Made by a program: the position numbers and the translations under genes. The notes under the pieces were generated by a model, which saw nothing but the letters and a program-made list of their open reading frames with translations, had not been told where the DNA came from and ran no database searches. From a virus (taxonomy: Duplodnaviria > Caudoviricetes), in the IMG/VR virus record IMGVR_UViG_3300033412_000476, positions 23,268 to 87,267 of that record: DNA of 64,000 nucleotides; one strand, given 5' to 3'. Shown in pieces: positions 2,102-64,000 of the stretch (positions are counted from its first letter, which is position 1; the number at the start of each line of letters is the position of its first letter).

Positions 2102-2114
2102 CGATTGTTGCTCC

Positions 2115-13955: not shown

Positions 13956-14422
13956 AAAACTACTTGGACAAACTGATTGTACGGCGCGAGCGGAGCCTCG
14001 TGTGCGAGTCGGACGGGCCGCTCGGCCGCAAGATCACGCACAGCGGCGACATCGCGAAGATCGCGATCCCGCTGATTGGGCCTGAGGCTGTCGAAGTGTT
14101 CGTGATCTTCGCGCTGACCGCGCGACACAAGGTCACGGGCTACCACGAAGTGGCGCGTGGCTCGCTAAGCAGCTGCGCAGTCAGCCCCGGGGACGTCGCG
14201 CGCGTCGCGTTGATCGCGGGCACGCCGGCCTTCATCGTGGCCCACAACCACCCTAGCGGCGAGCCTGAGCCCAGCCCCGAGGACATCGCGCTCACGCGGA
14301 AGATCAAGCAGGCTTTCGACCTGCTCGGACTGACCCTGCTCGATCACGTGATCGTCACGAGCGAGCACCACAAGAGCTTGCTCGATATGGGCCTGCTCGA
14401 CGTTTCCGTGAAACCGGCGTGA
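13952..14422 (+). CDS. stand-alone RadC-like JAB/MPN+ domain protein
   Basis: EVFVIFAL...HNHPSGEPEPSPED...LLDHVIV with intact H-x-H...S-x-x-D; GTG start at 13952. Confidence 0.88.
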   Translation: MKNYLDKLIVRRERSLVCESDGPLGRKITHSGDIAKIAIPLIGPEAVEVFVIFALTARHKVTGYHEVARGSLSSCAVSPGDVARVALIAGTPAFIVAHNHPSGEPEPSPEDIALTRKIKQAFDLLGLTLLDHVIVTSEHHKSLLDMGLLDVSVKPA

Positions 14423-14482
14423 ATACCGGCAGCTGAAGTTTCGTCTAAGAGGCACAAGCAAGCGGCGCGGCTGGACCCGCGC
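14419..14482 (+). promoter_or_regulatory. early cassette GTGAAT-N17-CGTCTAA plus hairpin gcgcggCTGGACccgcgc
   Basis: gtgaataccggcagctgaagtttcgtctaa. Confidence 0.7.
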
Positions 14483-15157: not shown

Positions 15158-18100
15158 GTGCAACTCGACATCGAATACGTGCTCGCGGGCGAGCCGGAAG
15201 ACTGCGACCCAGCAGATCACTTCGACGACAGCGACGAAGGCGACGCCGACGTCACATGGGTTCATGAGCAACTCAGCGCCGGCAACCAGTGGGCCTGGTT
15301 TCGCGCGGTCGTCACCGCCCGCGTTACACTCGACGGCCAAACGTTCGAAGGCGTCGACTCGCTCGGGTGCTGCTCGTACAAGTCGGAGGACGACTTTCGA
15401 CAGTGCCAGTACTTCGACGACATGAAGACTGAGGCGCGCTACGCCTTGCTCGCGTCACTGCACACCGCCGTCCGTAGGGGCGAGCTTGCCGCGGTCGCGC
15501 TGACCCAGGTGACGCCATGATCTACGGACGATTTGGCGACGCAGTCACGATCGTGCGCATGGGCACGCTCGACGACGTCAAGACGATCGACGGCCGCAAG
15601 CCCGACAAGCAGGACCGCGAGGCTGTCGAGATCGGTAGCTACGTCGTAGTCCGCCAGGACAACGGCAAAGAGCGGCTCTACCACCTTGCGTTCCTGCGCG
15701 CCGACGGCGGCAGCAAAGAGATCAACGAGGCAATCGCCGCCTGCGACCCCTGGAGCCAGCCATGAAGGGTCTACGCCGGCTGAAGCAGCCGCAGATCGAG
15801 TACATCGGCCGCGGGCCTCGTGTGGTCGCGCTGAGCGCAGCGAGCGCGCTCTACTTCTTCGGCTTCGACAGCGAAAACTATGAAGCTGTCGACGTCGGTC
15901 CGCCGGCTGATCCGCACCGCTGGAAGCCGGAAGCTCGCGTGTACGAGTGCCGCAAGAAGCAATCGAAGATGAACTGAGCCTCGAGCTGGAACCTCGAGCA
16001 TCAACAGGGAGAAACGAACGTGAGTATGAACAGACCCAGCGTCACCGTACGTAACAACAACGTCCCCGGTGCGGCGGCTGACGGTGAGACGATCGTCGAG
16101 TTTAGCTTTCAGGACAGCACTGGCGGGCTGATCTCGTTCAGCATCGACGCGGAAGGCAACCCGCGCGTGGAGCTCTACCGCTGCGACGAAGGCATCCGCG
16201 TAGGACTCGACAATCTGACTGACCACAAAGGCGGCAAGCTGATCGCCGCGAGCGACATGTCGCTAGCCCGGATCGGAATCACCAAGTGAGCACCCACGAT
16301 CCCGAGCTGCTGTTCATCGCGCACTACCCGCCGGGCCCGGTGCGCACGTTCGCCGCGCGGCTGCTCAACGAGGTGGGCTGCGCGGTGCAGACCGAAGACT
16401 ACATCGCAGGCGTCGCCGAGTGCTGCGGCTGCAGCACCGCCGACCGCGAGCGCGTGATCACGCGCGCCATCGATTGCGGCTTTCTGCGCGCTGACGCGCT
16501 GCAGTGGGCGCCCCGAGGCAAACCCCGCTACATCCCTTGCCTGTTCGCGGTGCAGCCATGAGTTTCACCATGAAGGCGATCGCCATCGAGATGCGCAAGC
16601 GCGTCGCCACGCGGCGCAAGCCTACACTGGACGCGCTACGCGCGATGTCGCTACAGCAGATCGATCAGCTTCTCACGGAGTGCGCGGTCAAGGTTGTTCG
16701 CCTGCATACGTCGAAGTCGACGCCGCTGCGTTCGTACGCCTGCAAGCTCCGGCGGTTCGACGGCTCAACAGTCGAGCGCTTCGCAACGACAGCCGGACAG
16801 GCACTTCTCGACGCGCTCGACAGCGCAACAGACGCCGGCTGGTTCGGCGATCACTACGAGCAACGAAACCAACTACAGGAGACAGCGCAAGATGAGTGAG
16901 AGAACCGACAGAGCCCGCGTGGTTGCGGGCGCAATCAAAGCCAAGGTCGCTGCCTACGAGAACGGCGAGTGCGACAACGGCGCGCTCGACGTTGCCACCA
17001 ACGCGATCGCCATGCTCGGCCAGCTGGCCGACGCGGTGCTCACGCTCGCCGAAGAGCACGATCATCTCGAGCGCACGCTCGCCTCACGCACGGATCACCT
17101 CGCGTGACCAAACCCCTGAACGAGATACTTCAAACGAAGATCCTCGAGCAACGCTCCGGCGCGCTGCTGCGCGCGTACGAGCTGATGCAGGAGACTGCGA
17201 AGCAGATGCCTCCGGCTGCGCGCAAGCTGGCCGATCGCGCGCTCCTCGAGCTCGAGGCGTTCGGCCAGAGTCTCGAGCGTGAGTACCGCTCAAGGGGACT
17301 GTAGCGATGACGCTCGAGGAGATCATCGCAGCGATCGGCCGGCACATGTTCTCGCGAACGCAGCTGAACCGCGAAGTCTCCGCACGCGTGCACCTACACA
17401 ACGACGTGCTCATCGGCAGTCTGTACCGCGACGTGCTCACTGACGAGATCACGCTGCTAGTTCAACTCGGCCAAGCTTGGTGCTACGGCTGGCAGCCCGA
17501 GGAAGCCCGCGCAACGTACTACCTGTCGCGGTTCACCAGGAGCCTGCGGCCATGAAGAACAGAAACCGTTTCAGGACCATCCACCGGAAAGCAACGATGC
17601 CCGCGCCCAAGAACGTGATCTTCGCCCCAACGAGCGTGCACATCTATCCGGACAGTCAACGGGGGCAGGTTGCCTTCGAGCTGCGCAACAAGGCTAATAA
17701 GCCGCTGATGACGCTGCTACTCGAACCTGAGGGCGCCGCGAATCTGTTTGCGAAGCTCGGAGAGGCCCTCGTCGCGATCACCGGTACCGCGGACCACTGG
17801 CGTCGCGGCGCTGTCGAGCCGCAGAAGACGCAAGCGCGCTGCACATGCCCTTGCCCTGACGATCCCGACAAGCCGTCGACCGATCCGACCGCGCACTACA
17901 TCGGTTGTCCGTTTCGCGCAGAGCTCGAGGCGCAGACCGAGTGAAGATCAGAGTCAAGACGCCGCGACGGCTGCCGCCCAAGGCAGAAGCGATCGATTAC
18001 CCAGAGATCATTTCGCAGATCAATCGGGAGCTGGAGCACCACGGCCTGAGCGCGCTCGACTTGCTCAGCAGCTTCGCGCTGCATCTGTTGGGCGTCGCGC

Positions 18101-18255
18101 TGGACGTCACCCCGCAGCACCCCGTCAGCCAACAAAAGGTCTATAGAGACCTGCACTTAGAGATCAGCCGCATGGTCGGAGAGGCGCTCGACCGCAAGCA
18201 GCGTCTACTCGGATCTCCGCTGGGCAACCAGTCGCTACCGAAGGAGCGAGACTAG
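15158..18255 (+). CDS. run of ~11 small hypothetical genes (15158..15520, 15517..15765, 15762..15977, 16020..16289, 16286..16561, 16558..16899, 16892..17107, 17104..17304, 17307..17555, 17552..17944, 17941..18255)
   Basis: Nearly all linked by ATGA/GTGA stop-start overlaps; hairpin ctcgagCTGGAACctcgag at 15980-15998. Confidence 0.6.
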
Positions 18256-18283
18256 GAGCACGCGCGCGAAAATAGATTTCGGC

Positions 18284-18337
18284 TGAATCTTGTCGTAACG
18301 TCGGCGTCGCAGTTCAACCCTCGGCTGGAACCCGAGG
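18284..18337 (+). promoter_or_regulatory. early cassette variant TGAAT-N16-CGTCGCA plus hairpin cctcggCTGGAACccgagg
   Basis: Direct reading; precedes the RecA-like gene. Confidence 0.55.
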
Positions 18338-18358
18338 CGCACCAAGGAGAAAAACAAC

Positions 18359-19150
18359 GTGGCAGATTTCATTTCAACAGGGGTCTTGTCCCTCGATTGC
18401 GCGCTCGGTGGCGGCTACCCGAAGAACGGCATCGCCGAGATCTACGGCGAGATGGGCGCGGGGCGGCTGACGCTCGCGCTGCATGCGATCGCAGAGTGCC
18501 AGCTGCAGCCCGACGGCGTCACGTTCATGTTCGCGCACGGCGATCAGATCGCGCCCTTCGACGCAGTCTACGGCATGCGGCTAGGCGTCGACCCTCAGCG
18601 GTTTCTGCACTTCGAGCAGCGCAAGCTCGAGTTGCTTTTTCGCTGCCTGCGCAGCGCCGTCACCGGCAGTCATCCGCCCGACCTCGTGATCGTCGACCTC
18701 CGCCGCGGCATCGCGCGACTGTCGGCCGAAGAAGGCAGTGAGCTGGTCGCCCGGCTCTCGCTCTTTCTGCGCGAGCACTGCTCTCACAAGCAGCGCACGA
18801 GCTTGCTCTTTCTCAGCGACGGCAAGCTGCAGCCGCTGCAGTTTCACGCGCAGCAGCGCATCCTGCTGCAGTTCGACCGCGTCGCGCCCAACGACGACAC
18901 GCTCGTGCACGCGAACATCGTCAAAAACCGGCTCGGCGAGCCGTACAAGCAGCTGAGCCTGCAGCTGACGCCCGGCGACGGCGTCGATCTGATCGCGGAC
19001 ATCGTGCGGACGGCCGCCTACGCCGGTGTGCTGCCACACCAGAACGTCGAGGCGCTGTGCGTAGAGCTCCGCCGCGACAACCACGCCCGCGAGGCGCTCT
19101 GCCGTACCGTGCGCAGCAAGATGCTCTTTGGCGCGAGCGTTGCGCAGTGA
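18359..19150 (+). CDS. degenerate RecA-like protein, predicted ATPase-inactive
   Basis: ISTGVLSLDCALGGGYP..IAEIYG, LGVD, DLVIVD and VKNRLGEPYK follow RecA order, but Walker A reads GEMGAGRL. Confidence 0.85.
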   Translation: MADFISTGVLSLDCALGGGYPKNGIAEIYGEMGAGRLTLALHAIAECQLQPDGVTFMFAHGDQIAPFDAVYGMRLGVDPQRFLHFEQRKLELLFRCLRSAVTGSHPPDLVIVDLRRGIARLSAEEGSELVARLSLFLREHCSHKQRTSLLFLSDGKLQPLQFHAQQRILLQFDRVAPNDDTLVHANIVKNRLGEPYKQLSLQLTPGDGVDLIADIVRTAAYAGVLPHQNVEALCVELRRDNHAREALCRTVRSKMLFGASVAQ

Positions 19151-19434
19151 CAGTAACCCGCTACGCGCTCGTGCACCCAGAGATGGGGATCTACCTCGGC
19201 AGCGCGATGGGCCTTGGGTTCTGGTCCAAACTAGATCCTGTCGGCCAGCCTGCGGCGGTGACGTTCGACTCGGAGCAGCAAGCGCACGACGTCGTAAAGA
19301 CCTGGGACGCGCCCGTCACGGGCTACACGCTGCACGCCGTCGAAATCGCGTACGGCGTGTACGCCACCGTCGATGAGTGCGTTCGCGCCGGCCTACCGAA
19401 GTGGAACCCGTGGGATCAACGGAGCACACGATGA
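19147..19434 (+). CDS. hypothetical protein
   Basis: GTG overlaps the RecA-like stop. Confidence 0.55.
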   Translation: MTVTRYALVHPEMGIYLGSAMGLGFWSKLDPVGQPAAVTFDSEQQAHDVVKTWDAPVTGYTLHAVEIAYGVYATVDECVRAGLPKWNPWDQRSTR

Positions 19435-20081
19435 ACGACTTCGACGACGTCCTAGAGCGCGACAAGCAGAAGCCGCCCGACTACCCGCTGTGCTGGCCCA
19501 ACGGCTGGCCGCGCGTGCCTGCGAGCGAACGCAAGCGCGCACGCTACGAAGTCACACGCGCGGCCGCGCTCGAGGACTTGTTCGAGTCATTGCGACTGAT
19601 GCAGTGCATCGACGTCGTCGTCTCGCTCAACGTGAAGTTCAAAGCCGGCGTGTCACTCAGCAACGCGCCCGAGCCCGCTGACCCGGGCGTCGCGGTCTAC
19701 TGGACGCGCAAGGGCAAGTCGGGCTGCATGGCTTGCGACAAGTACCTGACGCTGCGCGACAACATCCGCGCGATCGGCTCGGCGCTCGAGGGCATTCGCC
19801 AGGTCGAACGCAGCGGCGCGAGCGAAGTCCTCGAGAAGGTCTTCACGGGCCTCAAAGCGCTGCCCGCGCACATCACGCCGGCACGCGGCTGGCGCGAAGT
19901 ACTGGGCTTCTCGCAGCTACACCCCGGTGAGCTGCCGACTCGCAAGCAGGTCGATGACGCCTACAGAACCCTCAGCCGCAGCCGACACCCCGACCACGGC
20001 GGCAGCCAAGAGCAGTTCGTCGAGCTTACGACCGCGCGCGAAGACGCGCTACGTGAGATCGACTGGAAGGCGCGGCTATGA
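19431..20081 (+). CDS. phage-type protein with C-terminal DnaJ J-domain
   Basis: WREVLG...AYRTLSRSRHPDHGG (HPD motif); N-terminal YPLCWPNGWPR as in prophage J proteins. Confidence 0.8.
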   Translation: MNDFDDVLERDKQKPPDYPLCWPNGWPRVPASERKRARYEVTRAAALEDLFESLRLMQCIDVVVSLNVKFKAGVSLSNAPEPADPGVAVYWTRKGKSGCMACDKYLTLRDNIRAIGSALEGIRQVERSGASEVLEKVFTGLKALPAHITPARGWREVLGFSQLHPGELPTRKQVDDAYRTLSRSRHPDHGGSQEQFVELTTAREDALREIDWKARL

Positions 20082-20599
20082 GCAGCAAGGATGATCGCAA
20101 ACTAGCCGCGGCGAAAGAAAAGCTGCGGCGGACGGTTACGCCGACGACGCTCGAAGAGCGTGCCCTCGTCCTATACGCTGAGACGCGCGAATCGTGGTGG
20201 GTCGACTCGCTGCAGCTGCTGCAGGCGCGCTGCCTCGCGATGTCGATGATCGCGCAAGCGCAGATCTTGCGAAAGCTCGGCGCGGATGATGACCTCTGAA
20301 TGAGGAGAACGCACGTGGATCCAACCGAGACCTTCCTGAAACTGGTCAACACCCTCGCTGAGCTCGAAGCCGAGCACGAAGAAGATCCGAAGAACCCAAA
20401 CACCGCGCGGCTGCGGAAAGAGGCTGTAGAGCTACTCGACTCGCTGTCGGAGTGGCTCGGGCGTCTCGGCGGCTTCCCGCCCAAGCTCTCCGAGCTCGAC
20501 CTCGGCGAAGGCGAAGACGAAAATGAAGATGGCGACGACGTCATCGATGCCGACTTCGGGGAAGAAGACGACGATCTTGGCGTCGACGACGGCGACTGA
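20078..20599 (+). CDS. two small genes (20078..20299; 20300..20599 with very acidic C-terminus)
   Basis: Coupled ORFs; D/E-rich tail. Confidence 0.55.
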
Positions 20600-21462
20600 T
20601 GAAGCCTCTCATCAAGTGGATCGGCGGGAAGGGAAAGCTGCTGCCGCAGCTACTGCCGCTGCTGCCGCCGCTCGAGAGTATCCACACGTACGTCGAGCCG
20701 TTTCTCGGCAGCGGCGCGCTGTTCTTCGCGCTCGAGTTCGATGACGACGACGCCGTCGTGCTCGGTGACAGTAACCCTGCGCTGATCAACGTCTACCGCA
20801 GCGTGCGTGACTCGATTTCAACCGTGACGATTCGGCTCGAAGCGCTGGCGGAAGGGCACTACGCCGCAGAGAAGCGCGGCGACGAAGTAGTACGCAGCTA
20901 CTACAACAAGATCCGCGACGCCTTCAACTCAGACGATTCCGGCGACATTCCTGCTGCGGCGCGGTTCCTCTATCTCAACCGCACGTGCTTCAACGGCGTC
21001 TGGCGTGTCAACCGCGACGGCGAGTTCAACGTCCCACTCGGCGACTACAAGCACCCTGCGATCTATGACGAAGCGCTGCTGCTCGCAGCGAACAAACGCT
21101 TACGCCAGCGCTGCGTGCAGCTGGTGCTCGGCGACTTCAGTGACGTCATCTTCTACGCGCGCGAGCTGCGCGACGCGTTCGTCTACCTCGATCCGCCGTA
21201 CGTGCCGGTCTCGGAGACCGCGGACTTCACGAGCTACACCGTGGAGAAGTTCGGGCAGGCGGATCTCGAGCGGCTACGCGCGCTGTGTGATGAGCTCGAC
21301 AGTGCAGGCGCACGGTTTATGCTGAGCAACAGCACTGCACCGACTGTCCGCGAGCTTTTTGGCAAGTACGACATTCAAGAGATCAGCCGGCGCGGCAGCA
21401 TCAACAGCGACAAGAACAAGCGCGGCGACGTCACCGAGCTCGTAGTCAGGAACTACCGATGA
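20599..21462 (+). CDS. dam: Dam-family (D12 class) DNA adenine methyltransferase
   Basis: KWIGGK, YVEPFLGSGA, FLYLNRTCFNG, VYLDPPY, FMLSNS. Confidence 0.92.
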   Translation: MKPLIKWIGGKGKLLPQLLPLLPPLESIHTYVEPFLGSGALFFALEFDDDDAVVLGDSNPALINVYRSVRDSISTVTIRLEALAEGHYAAEKRGDEVVRSYYNKIRDAFNSDDSGDIPAAARFLYLNRTCFNGVWRVNRDGEFNVPLGDYKHPAIYDEALLLAANKRLRQRCVQLVLGDFSDVIFYARELRDAFVYLDPPYVPVSETADFTSYTVEKFGQADLERLRALCDELDSAGARFMLSNSTAPTVRELFGKYDIQEISRRGSINSDKNKRGDVTELVVRNYR

Positions 21463-22100
21463 CCCGCATGACCGTCGGACCCAAGCGCTCGCGCAGCAAG
21501 GAACGCAAAAAGCCCGCGGTCTCGTTCGCACGCGAGGACTGGCTCAAGCTCCGTACGGCGCTGCGCGACGATCCCGAGCTCGAGGGCGCGGTGCTGCGCG
21601 TGATGATGGCAACGAGCGTTCGAATCCAGGACATTCTACTCGTGCGCCTCGACGCCATCCGCGCGGCTTTGCGACACGACGACGGACTCATCGAAGTGAT
21701 CCAGAAGGGCGGCAGCCGGCGAATGCTGCCCGTCGCAGGCGCGCACCACGAATGGTCCGCGCTACTGGCGCACTGCAAACAAGCCAACGCCGCAGCGACG
21801 ATCGTAGCCGAGGCCGTGTGCCCTGCCTCGAGCTGGGGCGCCAAGGGCGGTGGCGGCGCCTACCAGCGCGTGCGCCGACACCTGCAGGCAGTAAGCGACC
21901 GCATCGGCATCGACGGGCGCGTGCACCTGCACCGCATCCGCCGAACGGTGGCCACGACCGCGTTGCGGCACACCAAGGACATCAAGCTCGTCGCGGAGAT
22001 GCTCGGGCACAAACACGTTTCGACGACCGAGATCTACGTCGACGAGGCCCGCAGCGACGACGTGGCCGCGCTGCAGCGCCAGCTGATGGAGGACCCTTGA
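21459..22100 (+). CDS. minimal tyrosine recombinase (catalytic domain only)
   Basis: R in TSVRIQDIL, K in QKGG, H-x-x-R in HRIR, LGH and terminal Y in STTEIY; 213 aa. Confidence 0.85.
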   Translation: MTRMTVGPKRSRSKERKKPAVSFAREDWLKLRTALRDDPELEGAVLRVMMATSVRIQDILLVRLDAIRAALRHDDGLIEVIQKGGSRRMLPVAGAHHEWSALLAHCKQANAAATIVAEAVCPASSWGAKGGGGAYQRVRRHLQAVSDRIGIDGRVHLHRIRRTVATTALRHTKDIKLVAEMLGHKHVSTTEIYVDEARSDDVAALQRQLMEDP

Positions 22101-24340: not shown

Positions 24341-25750
24341 TCAGCTCCCGCTTTCGAAGCTGAGCATGTCGCCGGTCGGAGCTGCACCGATTCCCGTTGC
24401 GGCCCAACCTGCCTGATCGGGTGCCGTAGTGAAGACGGTAGTTGTGACGCGTGAGTCGAGCTGAATCCAGGTGTTGCCGTCGCGCGAGACTTCCGCGACG
24501 ACGTTCGCGCCGGACCGCCGTACGCGCAACGCGATCGGCGCGGTGCCATCGAGCGAAGCATAGCCCTTGGCGGTGAACACACTTCGTGCGGTCGAGCTGG
24601 TCCACACGGCGATCGCGAGAGACGTGAGGTTGTTGGCGCCGTCCTGCACCAGCTGCGCGAGATACACCTTGCCGGTGCCGCTCTCGCGCAGCAGCACCGA
24701 CAGCACGCCCACACCCGCAGTCAGAGGCGTGGTGAATCGGAACGTCGCACGCGCGAACGCAGATGCAGCTGAGTTCGCGACAGTCATCCCGCGCAGCTGC
24801 CCGGGCGAAGCGCCATCGTTCGGGCCGGTGATGCGCGTCGCACCATTTTGATCGGCCGAGGTGGCGCCGCCTTGGTTGAACCACGTGAAGGTCGCGATCA
24901 GACCAGGCTCTTTACCGAGTAGCCCATTGATCACAGGTCGCCACGCTGCGCCGTCATCGACCCACTCACCGACGGGCGCGTCAGTCAGGTAGGCGATCTT
25001 GCCGGCGTGCCCCGCGGCAGGCCGCGCGCCGTACGTGCCGTAATAGGGCACAGTGCCATTGAGCGCGTCGAGCGCCGCTTTCACGGTGGCGCCCGTCACA
25101 CCCGAATCGTTGGTCACTTGGCTCGCGGCGTAGTCACCGGCGGCAGCAACCACAGCGCCGGTACGCGTGAACACGCTGGTGACCGCAGCGCCAGGCGTGA
25201 TCCCGTCGAGCTTGGCTTTGTCCGCGCCGCTCAGAAAGCCTGCAGCGCCCGAGGCTACGGCTACGGCATGTTGAGTGCCGCCTCCGCGCACGCCGTGCTG
25301 CACATCGGTCGCGAGCACACCGACTTGTACATCGTTAGCGTTGACGGTGATCGACCCGTCCGCGTTCGCGCCCACGTCGAACGTGCGATCAATGCTCAGA
25401 TCTCCGCCACCCGTCAGACCCGCGCCGGCTGTGAGCGTGCGCCCGAGCGGCGGATAGAACGCCGCGTAGTCACCGGCCGCCGCGACCACCGCGCCGACGC
25501 GACCGAAGACCGAGACCACCGGTGCGGCAGGAATCGAAGCGATCTCGGTTTGAAGAGTGTTGAGCGCGTCTTTGACGGTTGCGCCGACTACGGCTGAGTC
25601 GTTGGTGACGAGGCTTGCGGAGTAGTCACCGAGGACTGCAACGACGTTGCCGACGCGGCCAAAGACGCTGAGTACTGGCACCGCAGGAATGTCCGGCGCA
25701 GTCCAGATGGGGACTACCGAGCCGATCGCTGTGGGGTTTGCGCCCGACAC
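24341..25750 (-). CDS. putative spike/receptor-binding protein A
   Basis: Three (V/L)SVFxRxGxVVAxxGDY repeats typical of viral fibre shafts; beta-rich C-terminal head. Confidence 0.65.
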   Translation of the reverse strand: MSGANPTAIGSVVPIWTAPDIPAVPVLSVFGRVGNVVAVLGDYSASLVTNDSAVVGATVKDALNTLQTEIASIPAAPVVSVFGRVGAVVAAAGDYAAFYPPLGRTLTAGAGLTGGGDLSIDRTFDVGANADGSITVNANDVQVGVLATDVQHGVRGGGTQHAVAVASGAAGFLSGADKAKLDGITPGAAVTSVFTRTGAVVAAAGDYAASQVTNDSGVTGATVKAALDALNGTVPYYGTYGARPAAGHAGKIAYLTDAPVGEWVDDGAAWRPVINGLLGKEPGLIATFTWFNQGGATSADQNGATRITGPNDGASPGQLRGMTVANSAASAFARATFRFTTPLTAGVGVLSVLLRESGTGKVYLAQLVQDGANNLTSLAIAVWTSSTARSVFTAKGYASLDGTAPIALRVRRSGANVVAEVSRDGNTWIQLDSRVTTTVFTTAPDQAGWAATGIGAAPTGDMLSFESGS

Positions 25751-26773
25751 TTACGCGCGACCGACGCCAAAGCGCGCACGGCAGCGAGCCTGCATGTACG
25801 CGTCGTTTGCAGCGAAGTTGCCTACCGTCGTGTCGACGATCGCGATCATCAACATGTCGGTGCCGCTTGAGCCAGAAAAGCCGAAAGCCTGCAGCGTGCA
25901 CGTGACCACTGTGTCATTGCCTGTGAAGTTGGGCGCGACGTCGACGCCGTCGATCTGGTACTTCGCGCCGGTCGACAGGGGCAGCATGCTGTGCACGTGA
26001 TAGCCAAAATCGTTGGCGGGGGTCACGATGTTGATCCCCTGTGTGCCCCCGGTGAAGTCGACTTGTGTGACGTAGTTGTCTGCGTTGTTCGCGCGACCGG
26101 CGACGAACACGTGTCCCGTGAGTCCCACGCCAGCCACGCACCCGATGCGAGCGTTTGCCACCGCAGCGAACGAGCGCGCACGCGCGACGACGTACCACGC
26201 GTAGCGATTGGCTGCGGGCACTGCGACAGCAGCGTTCATCACAGCCGCTGTCGTGGCCGGCGTGGCGAAGGGGTTGTCACCTGGACCGCCGAACGCGGTG
26301 TAAGTCGTGTTGCCCGCAGCCACCCCGAGATTTGCCCCTGCGACTCGGTCCCTGATCGCGGTGAAGTTGCCACCGGCCACGGTCACGTTCGGATTTCCCG
26401 TCAACGCAAGCTCGACCTCCCACCAGTACTTCAGCGCTGACCCCAGAAACGAGGTCATCGGGATCATGGGGTCGACTTTGTGAACGTGGTCGGCGCGCGC
26501 TGCGCTGGCTGACACGCCATCGGCCGCGATGTTGCCGACCGTAAGGAGAGCAGGCGAACCGAACGTCACCTGCCCGGCAAGCAGAGTGTTCAGCGCGTCT
26601 GCGACGGTTGCGCCAGCAACAGTGGAGTCGTTGGTGACGAGGCTTGCGGAGTAGTCACCGAGTACTGCGACAACCGCGCCCACGCGTCCGAAGACTGAGG
26701 TCACCGGCGCAGGCGGTATCGTCGGCGCAGTCCAGATGGGGACTACCGAGCCGATCGCTGTGGGGTTTGCGCC
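25596..26773. repeat. two exact direct-repeat pairs shared by the spike genes: 51 bp (25694-25744 and 26723-26773), 38 bp (25596-25633 and 26625-26662)
   Basis: Base-by-base comparison. Confidence 0.85.
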
Positions 26774-26779
26774 GGCCAT
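25751..26779 (-). CDS. putative spike/receptor-binding protein B, possible lectin/LamG-like head
   Basis: N-terminus paralogous to 24341..25750; beta-rich C-terminal region. Confidence 0.6.
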   Translation of the reverse strand: MAGANPTAIGSVVPIWTAPTIPPAPVTSVFGRVGAVVAVLGDYSASLVTNDSTVAGATVADALNTLLAGQVTFGSPALLTVGNIAADGVSASAARADHVHKVDPMIPMTSFLGSALKYWWEVELALTGNPNVTVAGGNFTAIRDRVAGANLGVAAGNTTYTAFGGPGDNPFATPATTAAVMNAAVAVPAANRYAWYVVARARSFAAVANARIGCVAGVGLTGHVFVAGRANNADNYVTQVDFTGGTQGINIVTPANDFGYHVHSMLPLSTGAKYQIDGVDVAPNFTGNDTVVTCTLQAFGFSGSSGTDMLMIAIVDTTVGNFAANDAYMQARCRARFGVGRA

Positions 26780-26782
26780 GAG

Positions 26783-27385
26783 TTACATCGATAGGGCGTA
26801 GTAGACCGACAGCGTGTTGCCTGCGTGTGCCGTCAGATCGAGCACGTTGAGTCGGAACGCTAGGGCGCCTGCGACGTCATAGGTCTGCGCGAAGCGCGCA
26901 GTACCAGCGGCGAGCACATCGGTGCGGAGCTCGGTCCCCTCGAGCGGCCGCGAACCAAAGCCGCCGGCAGCGAAGCGCGAGCCCACCGGCGCCAACGGCG
27001 TGACCGTGCCGCCGATGAGCGTCATGGCGTGCCAGACGCCGTCGCTACGCCGCACCTCGGGAATGACCGACAGCCGCCCGCCGACCGCCATCACATACTC
27101 GAGATAGATCTCGCAGAGCCGGTACTCCTGACACTGCAGCTCGGGCAGCGCTTGGTACTCCGCGCCCTGCGCGCTCGAGATGATGACCTCGAGCTCGGAG
27201 ACGAGCGGCACAGTCTGCGTCGTGAACGCCGGCTCTTTGACCCAGGGGGCGTCATCGTCACCGGGGGCGCCTTCGTTGCCGCCCGACTGCTGATTGGTGT
27301 AGCCGGCCGGATCAGCAGGCTTGCGATCGCGAAACATCACGTCGAGGTCGTGGCGCGTGCTGTCGGTGTTCTTGCGGTTGTCCAT
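26783..27385 (-). CDS. putative vertex/spike-base beta-sandwich protein
   Basis: Alternating hydrophobic strands ending LSVYYALS; located in virion operon. Confidence 0.4.
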   Translation of the reverse strand: MDNRKNTDSTRHDLDVMFRDRKPADPAGYTNQQSGGNEGAPGDDDAPWVKEPAFTTQTVPLVSELEVIISSAQGAEYQALPELQCQEYRLCEIYLEYVMAVGGRLSVIPEVRRSDGVWHAMTLIGGTVTPLAPVGSRFAAGGFGSRPLEGTELRTDVLAAGTARFAQTYDVAGALAFRLNVLDLTAHAGNTLSVYYALSM

Positions 27386-28255
27386 CTAGCGAAATCTCGT
27401 TTCCGGCACGCTCTGCTCGCGAGCCATGTTCGCCGCGCGGACCATCTTCGTGATGCCGCGAAACGCAAGTGCAACGCGCGGCGCCCGGGCTTCGAGGATC
27501 TTCCCGCCGGCAAGCAGCGCGAGCTTGCCGAAGACCGCTACGCCGCTCTGCGCGACCTGCGCGCAAGTGGGGTGCGCGACGCCAAGCTGTTTTCGACCGG
27601 CGGTGAGCATGGTGCCCGCACCGATCGGGACGTCCCCGCGGCAGAGCACGCACTGCACGATCAGAACTTCCCGGTCTTGACAGCCTGACGCGCCGCGTTC
27701 GACGCCGCGAAGGCTGCGCAGGGCGTACAGCCCTGCTTTTTGACGCGGCGCTGCCCCGGCTGCGGCTGCTGCGAGAGGTGAGCGCCCATGCCCACGAACG
27801 CCGCCTTACCGAGCGTCTTGAGGATTGCCAACTTTACGCTCATGACCGGACTCCTTTCAGCGGGTGCGGCGCTTGATGCGATCGCGCACGGCCCACAGCA
27901 TACCGCCAAGGCCGCCGACGACGAGCACCGCGCCTAGGCCCTTTTGGGTGTACCACGTCGCCATACCCGTGCTGACACTCGTCAGGCCGGCAGCGAACGC
28001 GGCACCCTTGATGGCGCCCTCACGGTGATCGCTGGCCACCCAGCCCAGCAGCGCGCCACCCAGGCCCGCGCCTGCGAGCGTCGCAGCCGCGTAGAGCGGA
28101 GAATCGACCGCCGTAGCCGCGCCAAGCCGGCTGCCGCCACGCACGCCGTGGAAGGGGATGCCGGTCGCGTCGGCGGGCATCAGCAGCGTCTGCATGGTGC
28201 CAAGGCCGCCAAGACCCGCACCGGGTGCACCATCGAAGTTTCCGGCGGGCAGCAT
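27386..28255 (-). CDS. small virion/membrane proteins (27386..27658, 27661..27843, 27857..28255)
   Basis: Hydrophobic segments with basic C-terminal tails. Confidence 0.55.
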
Positions 28256-28257
28256 CT

Positions 28258-28593
28258 TCAGCTCTCCTCGTCGAAGTACTCGATCACTACGCCGAGCTCG
28301 ACCATGCCGCCGGTGCCGGGCACCGTCAGCGCGTTGATCGTCTGGTGCGCCTGCAGATAGATCGGCATGACGATGTCAGTCGGCAGGTTCACGAACAAGA
28401 ACGCGCGACCGGGCCCGGCTTCGTCGGGCGTGGGCCGATCGATCGAGAACGCGCAGCGCGGTCCGGGCGGCACGAGCAGCCGCACGCGGCGGATCGCACC
28501 GGGCGGCGCCTGTAGCTCAGCCGAGACGATCTCCCGCGCCTGCAGGTCGACTGTGGCGCGGTAGCTCTCGGTCGGTTTTCGCAGATGCCGCAT
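28258..28593 (-). CDS. small beta-rich protein, penton-like candidate
   Basis: ~111 aa of strand-like segments ending ELGVVIEY. Confidence 0.35.
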   Translation of the reverse strand: MRHLRKPTESYRATVDLQAREIVSAELQAPPGAIRRVRLLVPPGPRCAFSIDRPTPDEAGPGRAFLFVNLPTDIVMPIYLQAHQTINALTVPGTGGMVELGVVIEYFDEES

Positions 28594-28601
28594 GAAGCTC
28601 C

Positions 28602-37402: not shown

Positions 37403-39331
37403 CTACCGTAGCGGATTGCTCGACCGAATAAAACCCTGCTTGAAGAGCGTGAACAGACTCGGTCGCGGGTTCTTGCCGTACTTGTTCTCGAGATAGCCCT
37501 TCCATGCGTTGCTCGCTTGGATGAGCGACCAGCTACCGCTGGCGAGCTGACTGCAGATCTGCGTGTGCATCTGCTTGTCCGCGGCCGTCACGACGTAGCG
37601 ATACGGTGAGTTGGTGACGAACTTCTGCCAGTCTTCCTCGCACGGCAGCGAGCCGTGCTGCGTGACGGCCGGTGTTGGGGGCGGCAGATCAGGAACATCC
37701 GCGGCACACGCTGGCCGCGGTTGACCCTCACAGATCTCACAGGCATTGCCGGCGCGCGTCCACCAGACCGCGCAAGCCGCACGCGCCGTGCGGACAACAC
37801 TCGTAACCGTCGCCGTGAAAAGGCCAGGGAGGAGATCTCGATAGCGCGTGATGGCGACGCCGAGACGATAATAAAGGTCAGCCGTTGCCCCGTCGGCGAG
37901 CAGCCGGTAGCCGGCGCCGGTGAAAGTTCGGCTGAAGGGGTCACGTACGACGAAGAACGGTTCGTAGCCTCCACCGACCGCGCCTCCGATGAGCGAAACG
38001 AGTTTGTCCGCAATCCGCTGCATCGAGTTTTGGAATGGAGCGAGCGGTGAGCTCGCCACGGCCTGCTGCACTTTGGCGCCGAACTCGACGCTCTTCAGAC
38101 ACTGCGCGTCACTCGGATCGCACGTGAGCGCCGGATTGGCGAGCGCGATACGTGTGCGGGCGGTGACGTTGGTCAATAGGCCCTTGAAGTAGTCCGCGTA
38201 GTCCGTGCGCGTAACCGGCTGGCGTGCGATCGCGCCGTCGCTTCGCTTGGCGAAGCTGCCGTCTGCAGCAAGGCGCGGCGAGCTCTGCGCCAGCCACATG
38301 TTCAGATGCGTCTGCAGAACCACGTCGTAGCTCGCACCAAGAATCGTCCGCACGTGGTCTGCAACCGCATCGAGGCCGAACGCGAGGTTCGGATACGCCT
38401 GAGTGCCGTAGAAGGTGATCTTCGGCGCCGTCGCTTCGCCACGCGCGTGCGCTAGGTACGTCGAGAGCGAAACGACGCTGTTGGCCTTACCCATGCCGAG
38501 TGGCCAGTAGCTCGGGTCGCTGCCGCTGTAGCCCCAGTCTTGCACTGACCACAGCCGCCACTGCATGCACGCACGCAGCAGCGCCGGATCGCTAGCGTAG
38601 CGCTTGAGATCGGCGCGGTCCTTGTCGCCGTGGCTGGCAATCCAGTGCGCGGCCCACGTCGACGACCACGGCTGCATTGCCGCAAGCAAGAGCGGCCAGA
38701 TGGGGCTCGGATGCTGATACAGTGGCGAACGCGCGCCAGGCGCCGCAGCCCACTGCACCACGAGCTCAGAGAATGGCGAGGGGCAGAGGCGTGAGTTGAC
38801 TGCAGCATCGCGAATCGCGGTCGTGGCTGCGGTCTTTGCGAAATCTGCTTTCGCGACCGCCCACGCGGCGACCTCACTTGCGGCCGCTCCGATCGACTTG
38901 GGCCCGGTGCCGAAGATCACCGGCAGAAGCGCAAGCTCGGGCACGCCTGCGATGCCGCCCGAGTAGATGTCACTCCACGGAAATGGGAAGGCAAAGAGCG
39001 CGTAGTTGACGTGTGCCCAGCAGTCGAGCGCCCAGACGACCTTGAACTCCGACGATGACGTCGAGCTCGGGCGCATCGCGAGCGCGGCACGCAGGTAGTT
39101 TTGCACCCACGTGAAGTAGTCACGCGGGAAGACGAGCTGCGCACTCTGCGCATTCGGATCACCGCCAAACTCGAGCCACGCGGCAGGACAGCGGTAAGTG
39201 TAGATCGCGTCGCCGCTCATGTTGCCGGCGTTGCACTGCCGCACGGCATAGCTCGGTCCGCTCACGACAGGCTGCGAAGCTCGCAGCGCCTCGAGCTTGT
39301 TGAAATACGTCAGTGTGTCGGCTTGCGCCAC
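37403..39331 (-). CDS. large virion protein (642 aa), function unknown
   Basis: In virion operon; C-terminal domain paralogous to a domain in 36707..37393. Confidence 0.65.
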   Translation of the reverse strand: MAQADTLTYFNKLEALRASQPVVSGPSYAVRQCNAGNMSGDAIYTYRCPAAWLEFGGDPNAQSAQLVFPRDYFTWVQNYLRAALAMRPSSTSSSEFKVVWALDCWAHVNYALFAFPFPWSDIYSGGIAGVPELALLPVIFGTGPKSIGAAASEVAAWAVAKADFAKTAATTAIRDAAVNSRLCPSPFSELVVQWAAAPGARSPLYQHPSPIWPLLLAAMQPWSSTWAAHWIASHGDKDRADLKRYASDPALLRACMQWRLWSVQDWGYSGSDPSYWPLGMGKANSVVSLSTYLAHARGEATAPKITFYGTQAYPNLAFGLDAVADHVRTILGASYDVVLQTHLNMWLAQSSPRLAADGSFAKRSDGAIARQPVTRTDYADYFKGLLTNVTARTRIALANPALTCDPSDAQCLKSVEFGAKVQQAVASSPLAPFQNSMQRIADKLVSLIGGAVGGGYEPFFVVRDPFSRTFTGAGYRLLADGATADLYYRLGVAITRYRDLLPGLFTATVTSVVRTARAACAVWWTRAGNACEICEGQPRPACAADVPDLPPPTPAVTQHGSLPCEEDWQKFVTNSPYRYVVTAADKQMHTQICSQLASGSWSLIQASNAWKGYLENKYGKNPRPSLFTLFKQGFIRSSNPLR

Positions 39332-39340
39332 AGCGGCGCC

Positions 39341-40292
39341 TTACCGGCGACGCGGCTTGGCGTAGCCCTGCACGGCCGCGACGCCGAGCGTGATGAGCGG
39401 CATGAAGATGCCGGCGAGGCCATAGCCGACGGTCGCCAGCGTCTTGCCGCCCGAGCGCTTGTAGCCGTGGTAGCCGCCGACGAAGGCGCCGAGGATGTGC
39501 GCGGTCGTCATCGCGATCGAGCTCTGCACGCTCGGAACCGCGAGCGGCATGCCGAACGTTTCTTGGCTCCACTGGTTGGCGCGAGACATACGCGCCGCGA
39601 CCTGATCGACCGGCCCGCCGTTGTCGACCGAACCGTTGCTGCCGTTGACCGCCGCCGTCGTCATGATCTGCGCAGGCGGCTGAGGCACCGAGTTGTTCGG
39701 CAAGGGGTCGAACGCCGGCACCGAGGGGTCCTGCAGCGCAGCGATCGTCGTGGAATCTGCCATGGGGTCGTCCTTCTCCTCAGCGCCGACCGCGCGGCCG
39801 CGCGTAACCTTGTGCGATCGAAACGATGGGCGTGACCACCGGGAAGATCGCGCCCATGAAGCCCCAGCCGACGCCGGCCATCACCGATCGGTCTCGCCGG
39901 TAGCCGTGGTAGGCCGAGATGCCGGCACTCACGAGCGAGAGCGCAGCCGTCGCGATGACTGCGCCAAGCTGCACCGTCGGGCTCGACTTCTGCCAAGGAA
40001 ACGTCGGCAGACCGGGCAGGTTCATCGCGACCGGATCGCCGGAGCTCTGCGTGACGTCGACCATCGGATCGCTCGCCGAGGTCGCGAGTACCTGATCACC
40101 GACAGCGCCGAGGCCGTGAAGCAGCCGAGCGGTGCCGAACAAGCCGCCGAGCGTCGTCTGTCGAAGCAGGTTTTGCGGCTGCTGCGGTGTGACGCGGCGA
40201 GGCTGCCCCATCCAGTTGGTGCGCACCATGGGCTCGAACGCCGCGCCCAGGCGACCCAGCGTCATAATCTCGGTTGGCGCCATGTACGGCAT
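39341..40292 (-). CDS. paralogous membrane protein pair (39341..39763, 39780..~40292)
   Basis: Shared YHGY(K/R)R...G..FP...QGYA(K/R)P(R) C-terminal domain. Confidence 0.7.
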
Positions 40293-40296
40293 CGAT

Positions 40297-40989
40297 TCAA
40301 CCCTTCGAGTACCAAGGCCGCGGTTTGCTGCCGATGCGCGCGAAGATCGACTGCTTGACTGCAGCAACCTCGTTGTGCGCAGCGCTCGCGCGAATCGCGG
40401 CATTCTGCGCGGCGATCTCGCGGCTCGCTTTGTCCTGCGCCACGAAGTTCGCGAGGTCGGTCGCCGTGAGATACTCGTCGGGCGGCAGATAGCCCTTGGT
40501 CAGCGGCCTGCGGTGAATGTTGGGATTGACCGTCTGCACGGTCAGAGCCGTTGCGCCGTTGCTCGTGCCAAACGAGGCCGGCGACATCTGCACCGGCGGA
40601 ACACCAGCAGCCGCAACGAGCACGCCCGAGTGCTGCTCACCGTAGTCACGCGCCGAGACGTAGCCCTGCGCGTTCTGCGTGAACTGGATCGCAGCAGAAC
40701 CACTCTTCCAGCGCGTGAACATCATCCGCTGCGGCATGCCGATCGGCAGCGGGTTACCCTGCTGGTCGTACACCTGCTGCGGCGCGTCCGGATACACCGG
40801 GTACAGCTGCGAGCGCAGAGCATCGAGCGGCGCGTCTGCGATCTCCGGCGGAGTCGCCGACGGCGTCGACCCCAACCCGGAGTGATAGAAGCGCGGCACA
40901 GCGGGATTCTTCCACAACGGCGTGACGACTTGCAACCGGGCTCCGCCCGGGTATAGGGTGTATTCGCCAACACGGACCCACGAACACAC
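40297..40989 (-). CDS. hypothetical, probable first gene of virion operon (start uncertain)
   Basis: Co-oriented ORF leading the module. Confidence 0.5.
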   Translation of the reverse strand: MCSWVRVGEYTLYPGGARLQVVTPLWKNPAVPRFYHSGLGSTPSATPPEIADAPLDALRSQLYPVYPDAPQQVYDQQGNPLPIGMPQRMMFTRWKSGSAAIQFTQNAQGYVSARDYGEQHSGVLVAAAGVPPVQMSPASFGTSNGATALTVQTVNPNIHRRPLTKGYLPPDEYLTATDLANFVAQDKASREIAAQNAAIRASAAHNEVAAVKQSIFARIGSKPRPWYSKG

Positions 40990-51737: not shown

Positions 51738-52034
51738 TCAGAGCAAGCCGGCGAGCTCACTGACGAAAGCGCGTGTAGTGCTGCTTGCGATGCTCGTACC
51801 TGACGCTTGCGCGCTGTCGTGCTCGCTGCTGTGCTCGCTGACGTGCATGTCGTTCAACCGACGGACGACGAGTCGGTAGAGTCGGAGCTCGATATCGTCC
51901 GCGTAGTGGCGTTGGCGATTGTTGCGCAACCTGAGCACTTCTTCGCGCAACTCGGCGATACCGGTCACTGTTACGCCCGCGGGATGCTCGCGCTCGAGAA
52001 ACTCGAGCAACGTGACGGCGCGTGAGGGCGGCAT
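51738..52034 (-). CDS. hypothetical protein
   Basis: ATG overlaps protease stop. Confidence 0.45.
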   Translation of the reverse strand: MPPSRAVTLLEFLEREHPAGVTVTGIAELREEVLRLRNNRQRHYADDIELRLYRLVVRRLNDMHVSEHSSEHDSAQASGTSIASSTTRAFVSELAGLL

Positions 52035-63987: not shown

Positions 63988-64000
63988 CCATCGACGGCCT

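Follow-up and report, generated by a model that had tools for sequence, protein, structure and literature searches.

A jelly-roll, membrane-protein and protamine-like gene module of a probably non-tailed 87-kb DNA virus

The window, by which we mean the whole 64,000-nucleotide stretch analysed (the last 64 kb of a record of 87,267 bp), carries a block of genes at positions 24341-40989 that is probably the module for virion morphogenesis of a non-tailed virus of a GC-rich soil bacterium, a virus with a complete dsDNA genome of ~87 kb that is circular (or terminally redundant). All viruses described so far with a tailless build that combines jelly-roll, membrane and protamine-like proteins are several times smaller. 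The particle, the host (possibly a member of Gemmatimonadota) and motor-less packaging are what we infer from this module and its surroundings, an internal membrane and the tailless form of the particle being suggested by gene content.

Results

Genome ends and gene content

The two ends of the record carry a 200-bp terminal direct repeat (contig positions 1-200 versus 87068-87267, 99.5% match), the second copy of which occupies 63801-64000 of the window, without strand, and closes the genome. Because the record ends repeat over these 200 bp, the genome, at ~87.07 kb, is very probably complete and circular, in keeping with the unusually large virus proposed in the preliminary description. Genes on the two sides of the junction (564-aa protein and SNF2 on one, RecD-like helicase, Sak4 and PolA on the other) follow each other as they do internally in relatives, and a separately assembled contig of 54.6 kb, the run of which is possibly that of the source sample, extends 46.6 kb beyond the window end. 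CheckV assigns the 87,267-bp record a completeness of only 66%; relatives of 80.6 and 77.0 kb, in which terminal repeats are present, are rated 100% complete, and further relatives measure 85-89 kb.

The genome encodes UvrD, SNF2, ParB, MazG and two methyltransferases, the gene load reported earlier from the window, together with UDG-PolA, Sak4, ThyX, a tyrosine recombinase, an HNH endonuclease and, in the replication module, DUF669. Four tandem paralogs lie upstream and, like the 564-aa and 470-aa proteins, are without an assigned role.

Layout and conservation of the block

Every gene between 24341 and 40989 lies on the minus strand, as do all genes located below, with high third-position GC, and the real extent of the co-oriented block is ~22533 to 52639. 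The ~17 kb co-oriented module of capsid-like, fibre, transmembrane and basic proteins that was first proposed is real: its paralogs, repeats and anchors were found. Since the module genes recur in many other contigs (among them G001, G002, G003, L006 and L029), its ORFs are genes and not chance ORFs. Five jelly-roll genes and the gene of a 204-aa membrane protein have the highest third-position GC in the genome, and they form the only non-replication block common, by BLASTP, to all three complete relatives. Comparison with a close relative mended gene boundaries (29571-30704 instead of an end at 30782) and added the small genes at 34169-34441, 34441-34866 and 35715-35867. The module genes found no match in Pfam, PHROGs, PDB sequences or any cultured phage.

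Jelly-roll proteins

Three adjacent paralogs, A (31269-31988, 239 aa), B (32014-32712, 232 aa) and C (32743-33489, 248 aa, pI 4.5), are 24-33% identical and have the C-terminal motif 'YLDG..RRP' in common. The structure of paralog A was modelled as a single jelly roll; B is assigned to the fold by paralogy, and C, by paralogy and family, probably has the fold of the paralog A model. Both B and C are candidate major capsid proteins.

Two larger proteins, of 320 aa (28602-29564) and of 377 aa from its conserved start (29571-30704), are weak paralogs of each other (BLASTP E 4e-5) and candidate capsid or vertex proteins. The AF2 model of the 320-aa protein (pLDDT 94.2, pTM 0.91) shows a helix at the N-terminus and, besides the jelly roll, a second beta domain that takes up approximately residues 122-267. 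With this model, Foldseek returned birnavirus VP2 at E 4e-7, but with a TM of about 0.2, and VIA returned PBCV-1 (8.7), HHIV-2 (7.8), faustovirus (7.6-7.9) and PRD1 P3 (7.5). The 377-aa protein, the product of a core gene and assigned to the jelly-roll family as a paralog of the 320-aa protein, is 72% identical to that of L029 when counted from the corrected start.

The jelly-roll fold is one of the two points on which the preliminary description had staked its reading beforehand. The capsid candidates do model as jelly rolls, their best structural matches include P23-77- and SH1-type proteins, and the closest matches of the jelly-roll models are mostly virus coat proteins; at the level of sequence, no link of the jelly-roll proteins to any known capsid protein was detected.

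Membrane-anchored and basic proteins

At least six proteins of the block are tail-anchored, ending in a hydrophobic segment followed by a run of Arg and Lys. They include a protein with a C-terminal transmembrane segment and the basic end '...YARPRGRR' (39780-40403; homologs in G001 and G002), its 140-aa paralog (39341-39763), which ends in '...YAKPRRR', a Pro/Thr-rich protein of 228 aa (36707-37393, 'KRRRHR'), a protein of 267 aa (34872-35675, 'NRGKRRRR') and a probably coiled-coil protein of 141 aa (34441-34866, 'HRRKGRRRR'; 54% identity to its L029 ortholog). The core membrane protein of 204 aa (33518-34132), with a pI of 12, an Arg-rich N-terminus and several transmembrane segments, has homologs in G001-G003 and in a Gemmatimonadota chromosomal island, and its gene is always immediately upstream of the three jelly-roll paralogs. 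A small protein of 111 aa with an N-terminal transmembrane anchor (30841-31176) lies between the two jelly-roll groups, and a Gly/Ala-rich membrane protein of 132 aa (27857-28255) ends in 'RIKRRTR'.

Three protamine-like proteins, with up to 48% Lys+Arg, are encoded in the block. The smallest (35715-35867, 50 aa, 48% Lys+Arg, 4 Cys, pI 12) is 90% identical to its L029 ortholog; another (34169-34441, 90 aa, 36% Lys+Arg, 5 Cys, pI 12) is recognized by composition, and G002 and G003 have small, very basic proteins at the equivalent position. A basic protein of 217 aa (36035-36688, pI 10.8), which has 25 Lys/Arg and 6 Cys in its last 70 residues, is a candidate DNA-condensing core protein. Two further small basic proteins are a 60-aa product with a conserved 'GCTPCAA' motif (27661-27843) and a Cys-containing product of 90 aa and pI 11.2 (27386-27658), the positional counterpart of which in L006 has the same Cys pattern. 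Relatives keep the membrane and basic proteins in kind and position.

Fibres and other conserved proteins

Two fibre or spike proteins, of 342 aa (25751-26779) and 469 aa (24341-25750), have the same N-terminal anchor (86% identical over the first 66 residues) and different distal domains. The repeat 'SVFGR.GAVVA..GDY' occurs once in the former and three times in the latter, and the N-terminal 18 residues of the former are kept in L029. Directly upstream of the fibres is the gene of an acidic protein of 200 aa and pI 4.8 (26783-27385; 58% identity to L029), for which close homologs only were found; read as beta-rich in the preliminary description, it is possibly a vertex or fibre-adaptor protein. 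No penton protein was identified in this genome.

A small protein of about 111 aa (28258-28593), with homologs in G001, G003, L006 and L029, always comes directly after the 320-aa gene. The first conserved gene of the block, a 230-aa ORF (40297-40989), has an L029 ortholog of 186 aa (60% identity), and its product has no match in Pfam or PHROGs. The large conserved protein of 642 aa (37403-39331), 57% identical to its L029 ortholog and without a Pfam, PHROG, PDB or Atlas match, has positional equivalents of 648-910 aa in relatives, with a C-terminal transmembrane anchor. Adjoining the block, a transglutaminase-like protein of 201 aa (52034-52639; 51% identity to G001) reaches Pfam Transglut_core at E 1.9e-4, just under the cut-off, and matches the SSIP-1 virion protein gp34 by BLASTP (E 6e-10).

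Tailed-phage hallmarks and packaging ATPase

The families Terminase_6N, TerL_ATPase, Phage_capsid and Phage_portal were searched for in six frames, with working positive controls, and gave no match in this genome, closed by its terminal repeat, or in three complete relatives (69-81 kb, all rated 100% complete). Head, portal, terminase and tail families of PHROGs and Pfam matched no gene of the block, and no structural family was found among the ORFs of at least 280 aa, all scanned with Pfam or PHROGs. The terminase, portal and HK97 negatives are those of HMM searches, which extreme divergence could escape, and the HK97 P22 and T4 types were covered through PHROGs only. The absence of HK97, portal and terminase genes noted earlier for the window extends to the 23 kb adjacent to it, which hold replication genes instead. 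Judged by sequence, the features by which Caudoviricetes are recognized (HK97-fold major capsid protein, terminase large subunit and portal protein) appear to be absent.

The genome could still be that of a tailed phage (Caudoviricetes) in which divergence has made the capsid, portal, terminase and tail genes unrecognizable and the jelly rolls are decoration, cement, baseplate or fibre parts, which we consider unlikely. The fibre repeat is of a type common in tailed-phage fibres, tailed phages typically have such a replication module (Sak4, DUF669, UDG-PolA) and an HNH endonuclease, and in the Atlas the 564-aa protein has neighbours labelled Uroviricota; however, beyond the six-frame result in four of four genomes, the PHROG structural families match no gene, the few unexplained large ORFs lie in the replication block or are without Walker motifs, and the jelly-roll block is the only conserved structural block. 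The many tail-anchored and protamine-like proteins are likewise foreign to tailed-phage modules.

The preliminary description had also expected an FtsK/HerA (A32-like) packaging ATPase, and this was not detectable. FtsK_SpoIIIE and FtsK-type ATPases gave no match in this genome or in the three complete relatives, with controls that worked. The Walker-A proteins of the genome are the RecD-like helicase, Sak4 and UvrD only; no P-loop protein is encoded in the block, and none is conserved outside the replication genes.

Distribution of the module

The family comprises 314 clusters at 50% identity, mostly metagenomic, and a single chromosomal island of 13 kb, in a member of Gemmatimonadota, that has host genes on its flanks and is without replication genes. 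Because it stands alone in this chromosome, the module can exist apart from the 87-kb replicon. An 87-kb plasmid or other non-viral replicon with an integrated tailless jelly-roll provirus of 13-17 kb, the virus itself being of small, ordinary size, would fit such an island, the encoded ParB and tyrosine recombinase, and the 11-kb stretch between the module and the replication genes here. We regard this as quite improbable, because the module neighbours (transglutaminase-like, primase-like, 564-aa, SNF2, Sak4 and PolA) are kept at 30-58% protein identity, structural and replication genes are similarly diverged, and module-bearing contigs cluster at 70-89 kb. In addition, both the island and the module are without replication, integrase and ATPase genes of their own, and so the module hardly resembles a self-sufficient small virus.

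That the jelly-roll block builds a cell-surface layer, a compartment or a gene-transfer-agent-like structure of a mobile element, and not a virus particle, would accord with the undetected packaging ATPase, the stand-alone island and the abundance of jelly-roll folds in cellular lectins and enzymes, but is very improbable given the dominance of virus coat proteins among the closest structural matches, the fibres, in which the distal domain is exchangeable, the protamine-like proteins and the SSIP-1 virion protein homolog, all of which suit a virion, the full phage-like replication and nucleotide-metabolism set, and the presence of the module in one of 185,579 species genomes versus many metagenome contigs.

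Discussion

With the block taken as a virion morphogenesis module, the gene products suggest how the particle may be built. An icosahedral shell would be made of acidic jelly-roll proteins. Its pseudo-hexameric capsomers would probably consist of the three small paralogs, by analogy with P23-77 and SH1, in which two single-jelly-roll coat proteins form them, and the two larger paralogs would add a tower domain or take special positions such as vertices. The shell would surround a lipid vesicle bearing tail-anchored and multi-pass membrane proteins, and the protamine-like proteins would condense the DNA, the enclosure of which may need no packaging motor of its own, a mode already proposed for SPV1, a virus of archaea. 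Host binding would fall to two alternative fibres that are attached via one common N-terminal anchor.

More tentatively, this genome may represent a deep-branching bacterial virus lineage that is so far undescribed. Its members would have genomes of 70-89 kb, a large icosahedral shell that is lined by a membrane and made of five jelly-roll proteins from two unrelated families, protamine-condensed DNA and no packaging motor. If true, large soil bacteriophages would share the SPV1-type build, which is known from a single small family of archaeal viruses, and the lineage would form a new taxon of family rank or higher outside Caudoviricetes.

SPV1 (Portogloboviridae; coat protein PDB 6OJ0) has a hyperthermophilic archaeal host and a genome of about 20 kb, versus about 87 kb here, and within its shell lie a membrane and a DNA core condensed by protein, an arrangement that the membrane and protamine-like proteins predicted here from genes would fit. 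Its DNA, as here, is circular and double-stranded, and it is reported to be without a packaging ATPase (PMC8812541), which was not detected here either. SPV1 predates the duplication of its SJR coat gene and therefore has one coat type (PMC8812541), in contrast to the five jelly-roll proteins in two families here; it is without sequence similarity to the 87-kb virus, which, unlike SPV1, has its own PolA-based replication module.

Halopanivirales (Singelaviria / Helvetiavirae: P23-77, IN93, SH1, HHIV-2, HCIV-1 and SNJ1), the particle of which is tailless with vertex spikes (PMC12643093, PMC12642351), have neighbouring genes that encode coat proteins of the vertical single jelly-roll type, a small one plus a larger one with an extra upper beta domain, an arrangement that the models suggest may also be present here, and, like the genome here, encode many small membrane proteins. 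However, they have 1 + 1 jelly-roll genes versus 3 + 2 here, a conserved FtsK/HerA-type ATPase beside the coat genes that was not found here, and genomes of 16-31 kb (PMC12642351, PMC12643093) versus about 87 kb, without sequence similarity.

SSIP-1, an icosahedral phage of bacteria, contains a membrane, circular dsDNA and two types of coat protein (PMC6356626). It resembles the present virus in having a genome large for its class, in gp34, the homolog of the transglutaminase-like protein, and in gp43, with which a methyltransferase domain is common (E 2e-28). Profiles of both jelly-roll families (A2-A6) found no match among the 57 proteins of SSIP-1 (best E 0.045); its Walker-A virion protein, gp40, has no counterpart found here, and the genome here is twice as large.

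The prokaryotic double jelly-roll (DJR) viruses have genomes of <20 kb (PMC8812541). Bamfordvirae (Tectiviridae PRD1, Corticoviridae PM2) share with the 87-kb virus the concept of an internal membrane, predicted here from genes, and differ in their A32-like ATPase, not found here. In the comparison with these viruses only one jelly roll aligns, over about 115-125 residues, and the second beta domain here appears inserted in the first and not placed after it.

A closed genome of about 87 kb

The minus-strand block at 24341–40989 is probably the virion module of a tailless jelly-roll virus with a closed genome of 87 kb. The source IMG/VR record is 87,267 bp long, is labelled linear and is assigned a completeness of 66%. 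Its ends carry a 200-bp terminal direct repeat with one mismatch (contig 1–200 and 87068–87267; window copy 63801–64000), and this single mismatch is probably the reason why the repeat went unregistered in the record. The 23 kb before the window encode a RecD-like helicase, Sak4, a DUF669 single-strand-binding protein, a UDG-PolA fusion and ThyX; the primase-like protein, 564-aa protein and SNF2 at the window end, once joined to the record start, complete a replication block that is contiguous in three relatives. A 54.6-kb contig, assembled independently from a soil run that may be the source sample itself, overlaps the last 8 kb of the window and extends 46.6 kb further. Two relatives, at 80,634 and 76,963 bp, are each bounded by 127-bp terminal repeats and carry a completeness rating of 100%, and further family-bearing contigs are 85–89 kb. 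On these four lines of evidence (the terminal repeat, the joined replication block, the 54.6-kb contig and the sizes of the relatives) the genome is taken as closed at about 87.07 kb, which supplies the total size that the preliminary description had proposed to determine. Since the record closes and is nevertheless tagged linear and 66% complete, completeness tools misjudge this type of virus.

Gene content of the block

The window is GC-rich (about 64%), and genes were therefore called by third-position GC; comparison with L029, an 87,822-bp MAG-assembly contig from a close relative, corrected boundaries and exposed small genes beneath longer spurious ORFs. The minus strand carries every supported gene between about 22533 and 52639, a run that includes the block. 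In the order of transcription, the block starts with a 230-aa protein, two paralogous tail-anchored proteins (207 and 140 aa), a 642-aa protein and a Pro/Thr-rich tail-anchored protein (228 aa). These are followed by a basic protein (36035–36688) with 25 Lys/Arg and 6 Cys in its last 70 residues, a protamine-like protein of 50 aa (Lys+Arg 48%), two further tail-anchored proteins (267 and 141 aa), a protamine-like protein of 90 aa (Lys+Arg 36%) and a multi-pass membrane protein of 204 aa with an Arg-rich N-terminus. The next genes encode three acidic paralogs of 248, 232 and 239 aa (the small paralogs), an N-terminally anchored protein of 111 aa, two larger acidic paralogs of 377 and 320 aa, and a conserved 111-aa protein. 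The block ends with a Gly/Ala-rich membrane protein carrying a basic run at its end, two small basic Cys-containing proteins, a 200-aa acidic protein and two fibre proteins of 342 and 469 aa.

Against PHROG and Pfam, the block proteins gave no family match beyond insignificant short ones; for the 642-aa protein there was no usable Protein Atlas match, and a PDB sequence search returned nothing meaningful. The first 66 residues of the two fibre proteins are 86% identical and the proteins, which carry 'SVFGR.GAVVA..GDY' repeats, are divergent beyond. With one anchor and differing distal parts, they look from their sequences like alternative receptor-binding proteins. The L029 fibre is conserved over the first 18 residues only, which is the usual pattern of host-range module exchange. 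A partial second copy of the Lys/Cys-rich C-terminal motif of the 36035–36688 protein is present at 35883–35975 (minus strand), 64% identical to the L029 motif over 31 residues, and could represent an additional small basic gene or what is left of a duplication.

No detectable tailed-phage genes or packaging motor

Six-frame searches for Terminase_6N, TerL_ATPase, Phage_capsid, Phage_portal and FtsK_SpoIIIE were empty in the genome and in the three complete relatives, and all ORFs of at least 280 aa were scanned by Pfam, PHROGs or both. The lack of HK97, portal and terminase genes noted in the preliminary description holds by HMM search for the previously unseen 23 kb as well, and the FtsK/HerA (A32-like) packaging ATPase that it had suggested looking for did not appear in the FtsK_SpoIIIE search of these four genomes. 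An unrecognizably divergent tailed phage would leave the same searches empty, and is unlikely; control genomes were positive in all five.

Canonical Walker A motifs are confined to the RecD-like helicase, Sak4 and UvrD, and SNF2 and Sak4 are the only P-loop proteins common to all four genomes. Sak4 (AAA_24) was rejected as the packaging ATPase, being a member of the standard Sak4-DUF669-PolA replication trio. Likewise rejected was the RecA-like protein at 18359–19150 (plus strand; Pfam RecA, E 3e-16 over the N-terminal half), which lies in the early block, is not conserved in the relatives and has a degenerate Walker A, 'GAGRLT' and not GK[ST]. A very divergent packaging ATPase may be present.

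Relatives, host and distribution

A profile of the three small paralogs matched 314 clusters (50% identity) among 1.84 billion representatives; among the 150 clusters listed, nearly all are 210–270 aa besides shorter fragments, and none is longer. A word-based search found at least 337 proteins, with no annotation for any of the 120 listed. Outside the replication genes, the only block that BLASTP finds in all three complete relatives consists of the five jelly-roll genes and the gene for the 204-aa membrane protein. Tail-anchored and small very basic proteins occupy the same positions in relatives. The order of the block and its neighbours (transglutaminase-like protein, primase-like protein, 564-aa protein, SNF2, Sak4 and PolA) is retained at 30–58% identity, a pattern that speaks against the recent arrival of a small provirus in an unrelated replicon. 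A small provirus within a plasmid-like replicon is distinctly unlikely.

A single carrier of the module was found among 185,579 species genomes, a Gemmatimonadota MAG chromosome (CP070815.1, about 1.18 Mb), where it occupies a 13-kb island (L006:5069–17741) of about 22 co-oriented genes with host genes on both sides. The island has no Pfam match and no replication, integrase or ATPase gene; the module can evidently persist alone, perhaps as a remnant or as a domesticated particle-forming locus. About 1 Mb away on the same chromosome, a 1503-aa open frame contains UDG and PolA pieces resembling the viral UDG-PolA. The island is a weak pointer to Gemmatimonadota as the host phylum. The runs holding the sequence are soil metagenomes, with no RNA run among those listed, and megablast and tblastn gave no match to cultured phages.

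Folds of the candidate coat proteins

The 239-aa paralog, modelled by AlphaFold2 from a 64-sequence alignment, is predicted to be a beta sandwich (pLDDT 74.7, pTM 0.71). Foldseek returned nothing at E <= 0.001 for this model, and its sub-threshold list consists almost wholly of jelly-roll capsids and TNF-like proteins. The top five matches of a structural aligner are coat proteins with vertical single jelly rolls from membrane-containing prokaryotic viruses; the scores below the top match (HHIV-2, 7.4; P23-77 VP16-VP17 complex, 7.3; SH1, 7.1; P23-77 VP17, 6.9) are middling by the calibration of the tool, and so indicate a shared fold and a suggestive ranking, not proof of homology. That the jelly-roll block builds a non-virion structure is very improbable.

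The model of the 320-aa protein (pLDDT 94.2, pTM 0.91) has an N-terminal helix followed by beta domains. Its best Foldseek match is birnavirus VP2 (E 4e-7, probability up to 0.98, low global TM), and the aligner scores against single jelly rolls are 8.7 for the PBCV-1 and EhV capsid proteins and 7.8 for HHIV-2, with faustovirus at 7.6–7.9, PRD1 P3 at 7.5 and the STIV turret protein at 7.3. Most aligner rows span residues 28–320 with about 120 aligned, and in several rows residues of about 122–267 align separately, with a lectin domain and with the VP2 projection domain. We infer from the model a jelly roll with an inserted second beta domain, and not a canonical tandem double jelly roll; such an insertion would resemble VP2 and the tower-bearing large coat proteins of sphaerolipoviruses. 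As candidate coat proteins of both sizes model as jelly rolls, the jelly-roll-type virion module of the preliminary description is supported.

Paralogy between the 377-aa and 320-aa proteins is weak. Comparison of the small with the large family by hhalign gave no relation (probability 0.2), so that homology between the two jelly-roll families is not demonstrable. A complex prediction for the three small paralogs (score 0.02) counts neither for nor against their assembly, and searching the PDB by sequence with the coat-candidate profiles A2 and A3 returned nothing meaningful.

Proposed virion architecture and comparison with known viruses

The acidic jelly-roll proteins would form an icosahedral shell. 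The capsomers of helvetiaviruses are hetero-hexameric and pseudo-hexagonal (PMC8812541), and with three small paralogs capsomers of this kind are the natural model; the larger paralogs would form towers or occupy special positions, and no penton protein was recognized. The membrane proteins imply a lipid layer beneath the shell, where DNA and the acidic inner shell face are possible alternative binding partners for their C-terminal Arg runs; condensation of the DNA would fall to the protamine-like proteins. As no motor was detectable, the model that currently fits best is the one proposed for SPV1, in which a nucleoprotein condensed beforehand is enclosed.

SPV1, which is without a packaging ATPase (PMC8812541), is the closest functional likeness, in predicted shell fold and in the lack of a detectable ATPase. 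Next closest is the P23-77/SH1 group, in which several single jelly-roll coat genes lie side by side and which has membrane proteins and a large coat protein bearing a tower. Unlike both, the virus has five coat-type genes instead of one or two, a putative bacterial soil host and a genome 3–5 times larger, and shares no sequence similarity with them; by such tests as could be made it belongs to neither. From the helvetiaviruses it differs in the ATPase, a defining feature of theirs, for which the searches here were empty. SSIP-1 has a genome of 44 kb, compared with about 87 kb here; HMM searches of it with the five coat-candidate profiles gave no coat-protein match, and no counterpart of its Walker-A virion protein gp40 was found here. 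Two genes outside the block do connect with SSIP-1: the transglutaminase-like protein at 52034–52639 is homologous to virion protein gp34 (E 6e-10), and the methyltransferase at 1295–2134 (minus strand) matches one domain of gp43, a virion protein of 2319 aa (37% identity across 194 residues, E 2e-28). The literature searched held no account of such viruses, and there is a fair chance that this tailless jelly-roll virus with a putative internal membrane represents a high-rank taxon.

Among the prokaryotic viruses described so far, those with jelly-roll capsids are small: genomes are under 20 kb in double jelly-roll phages (PMC8812541) and 16–31 kb in helvetiaviruses (PMC12642351, PMC12643093). 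If the present reading is correct, the architecture scales to the size of large tailed phages and can carry a full replication and nucleotide-metabolism apparatus, and genomes of such size may do without the packaging ATPase thought to be needed. The 3+2 paralogs would be a natural gene-duplication experiment bearing on the debate over single and double jelly-roll origins, and a sizeable class of soil viruses would be misjudged by standard marker-based tools.

Other genes and flanking sequence

Besides the replication set, we recognized UvrD, a degenerate RecA-like protein, Dam, a second methyltransferase, RadC, a ParB-type protein, two MazG-like proteins, an HNH endonuclease, a DUF3310 protein, topoisomerase-like and sigma-like proteins, a GDSL lipase, a tyrosine recombinase and a transglutaminase-like protein. 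The gene load first described from the sequence (UvrD, SNF2, ParB, MazG and two methyltransferases) was recovered in full by Pfam/PHROGs. No tRNA gene was found in the 64-kb window.

The GDSL-family lipase/acylhydrolase (61148–61843, plus strand; Pfam E 3e-19), an unusual phage gene, is located in the replication-side block; its target could be lipids of the host envelope, during entry or exit. In contrast with L029, which has an Amidase_2 gene, the genome showed no classical endolysin. The 564-aa protein beside SNF2 (59392–61086, plus strand) is kept in G001 and G003 by BLASTP, and G002, the third complete relative, has a 643-aa gene there. It has no Pfam, PHROG or PDB match, its Atlas neighbours are viral and all unannotated, and its Atlas model is poor (pLDDT 0.50); it is probably a replication protein, of unassigned type.

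Before the window, on the plus strand, contig 17803–21788 (L005:5803–9788 in the upstream stretch) encodes four tandem paralogs of 306–335 aa, 30–38% identical, their third-position GC being very high. Neither Pfam nor PHROGs matched them, and their motif pattern, judged by eye, suggests a lectin-like beta fold. As capsid candidates they were rejected, since all three complete relatives lack a counterpart.

The conserved tyrosine recombinase and one provirus-labelled relative suggest that some members integrate or resolve dimers. A 30-bp direct repeat (13505–13534 and 14419–14448, 96.7% identical) flanks the RadC-like gene at 13751–14422, and could be a regulatory or recombination site.
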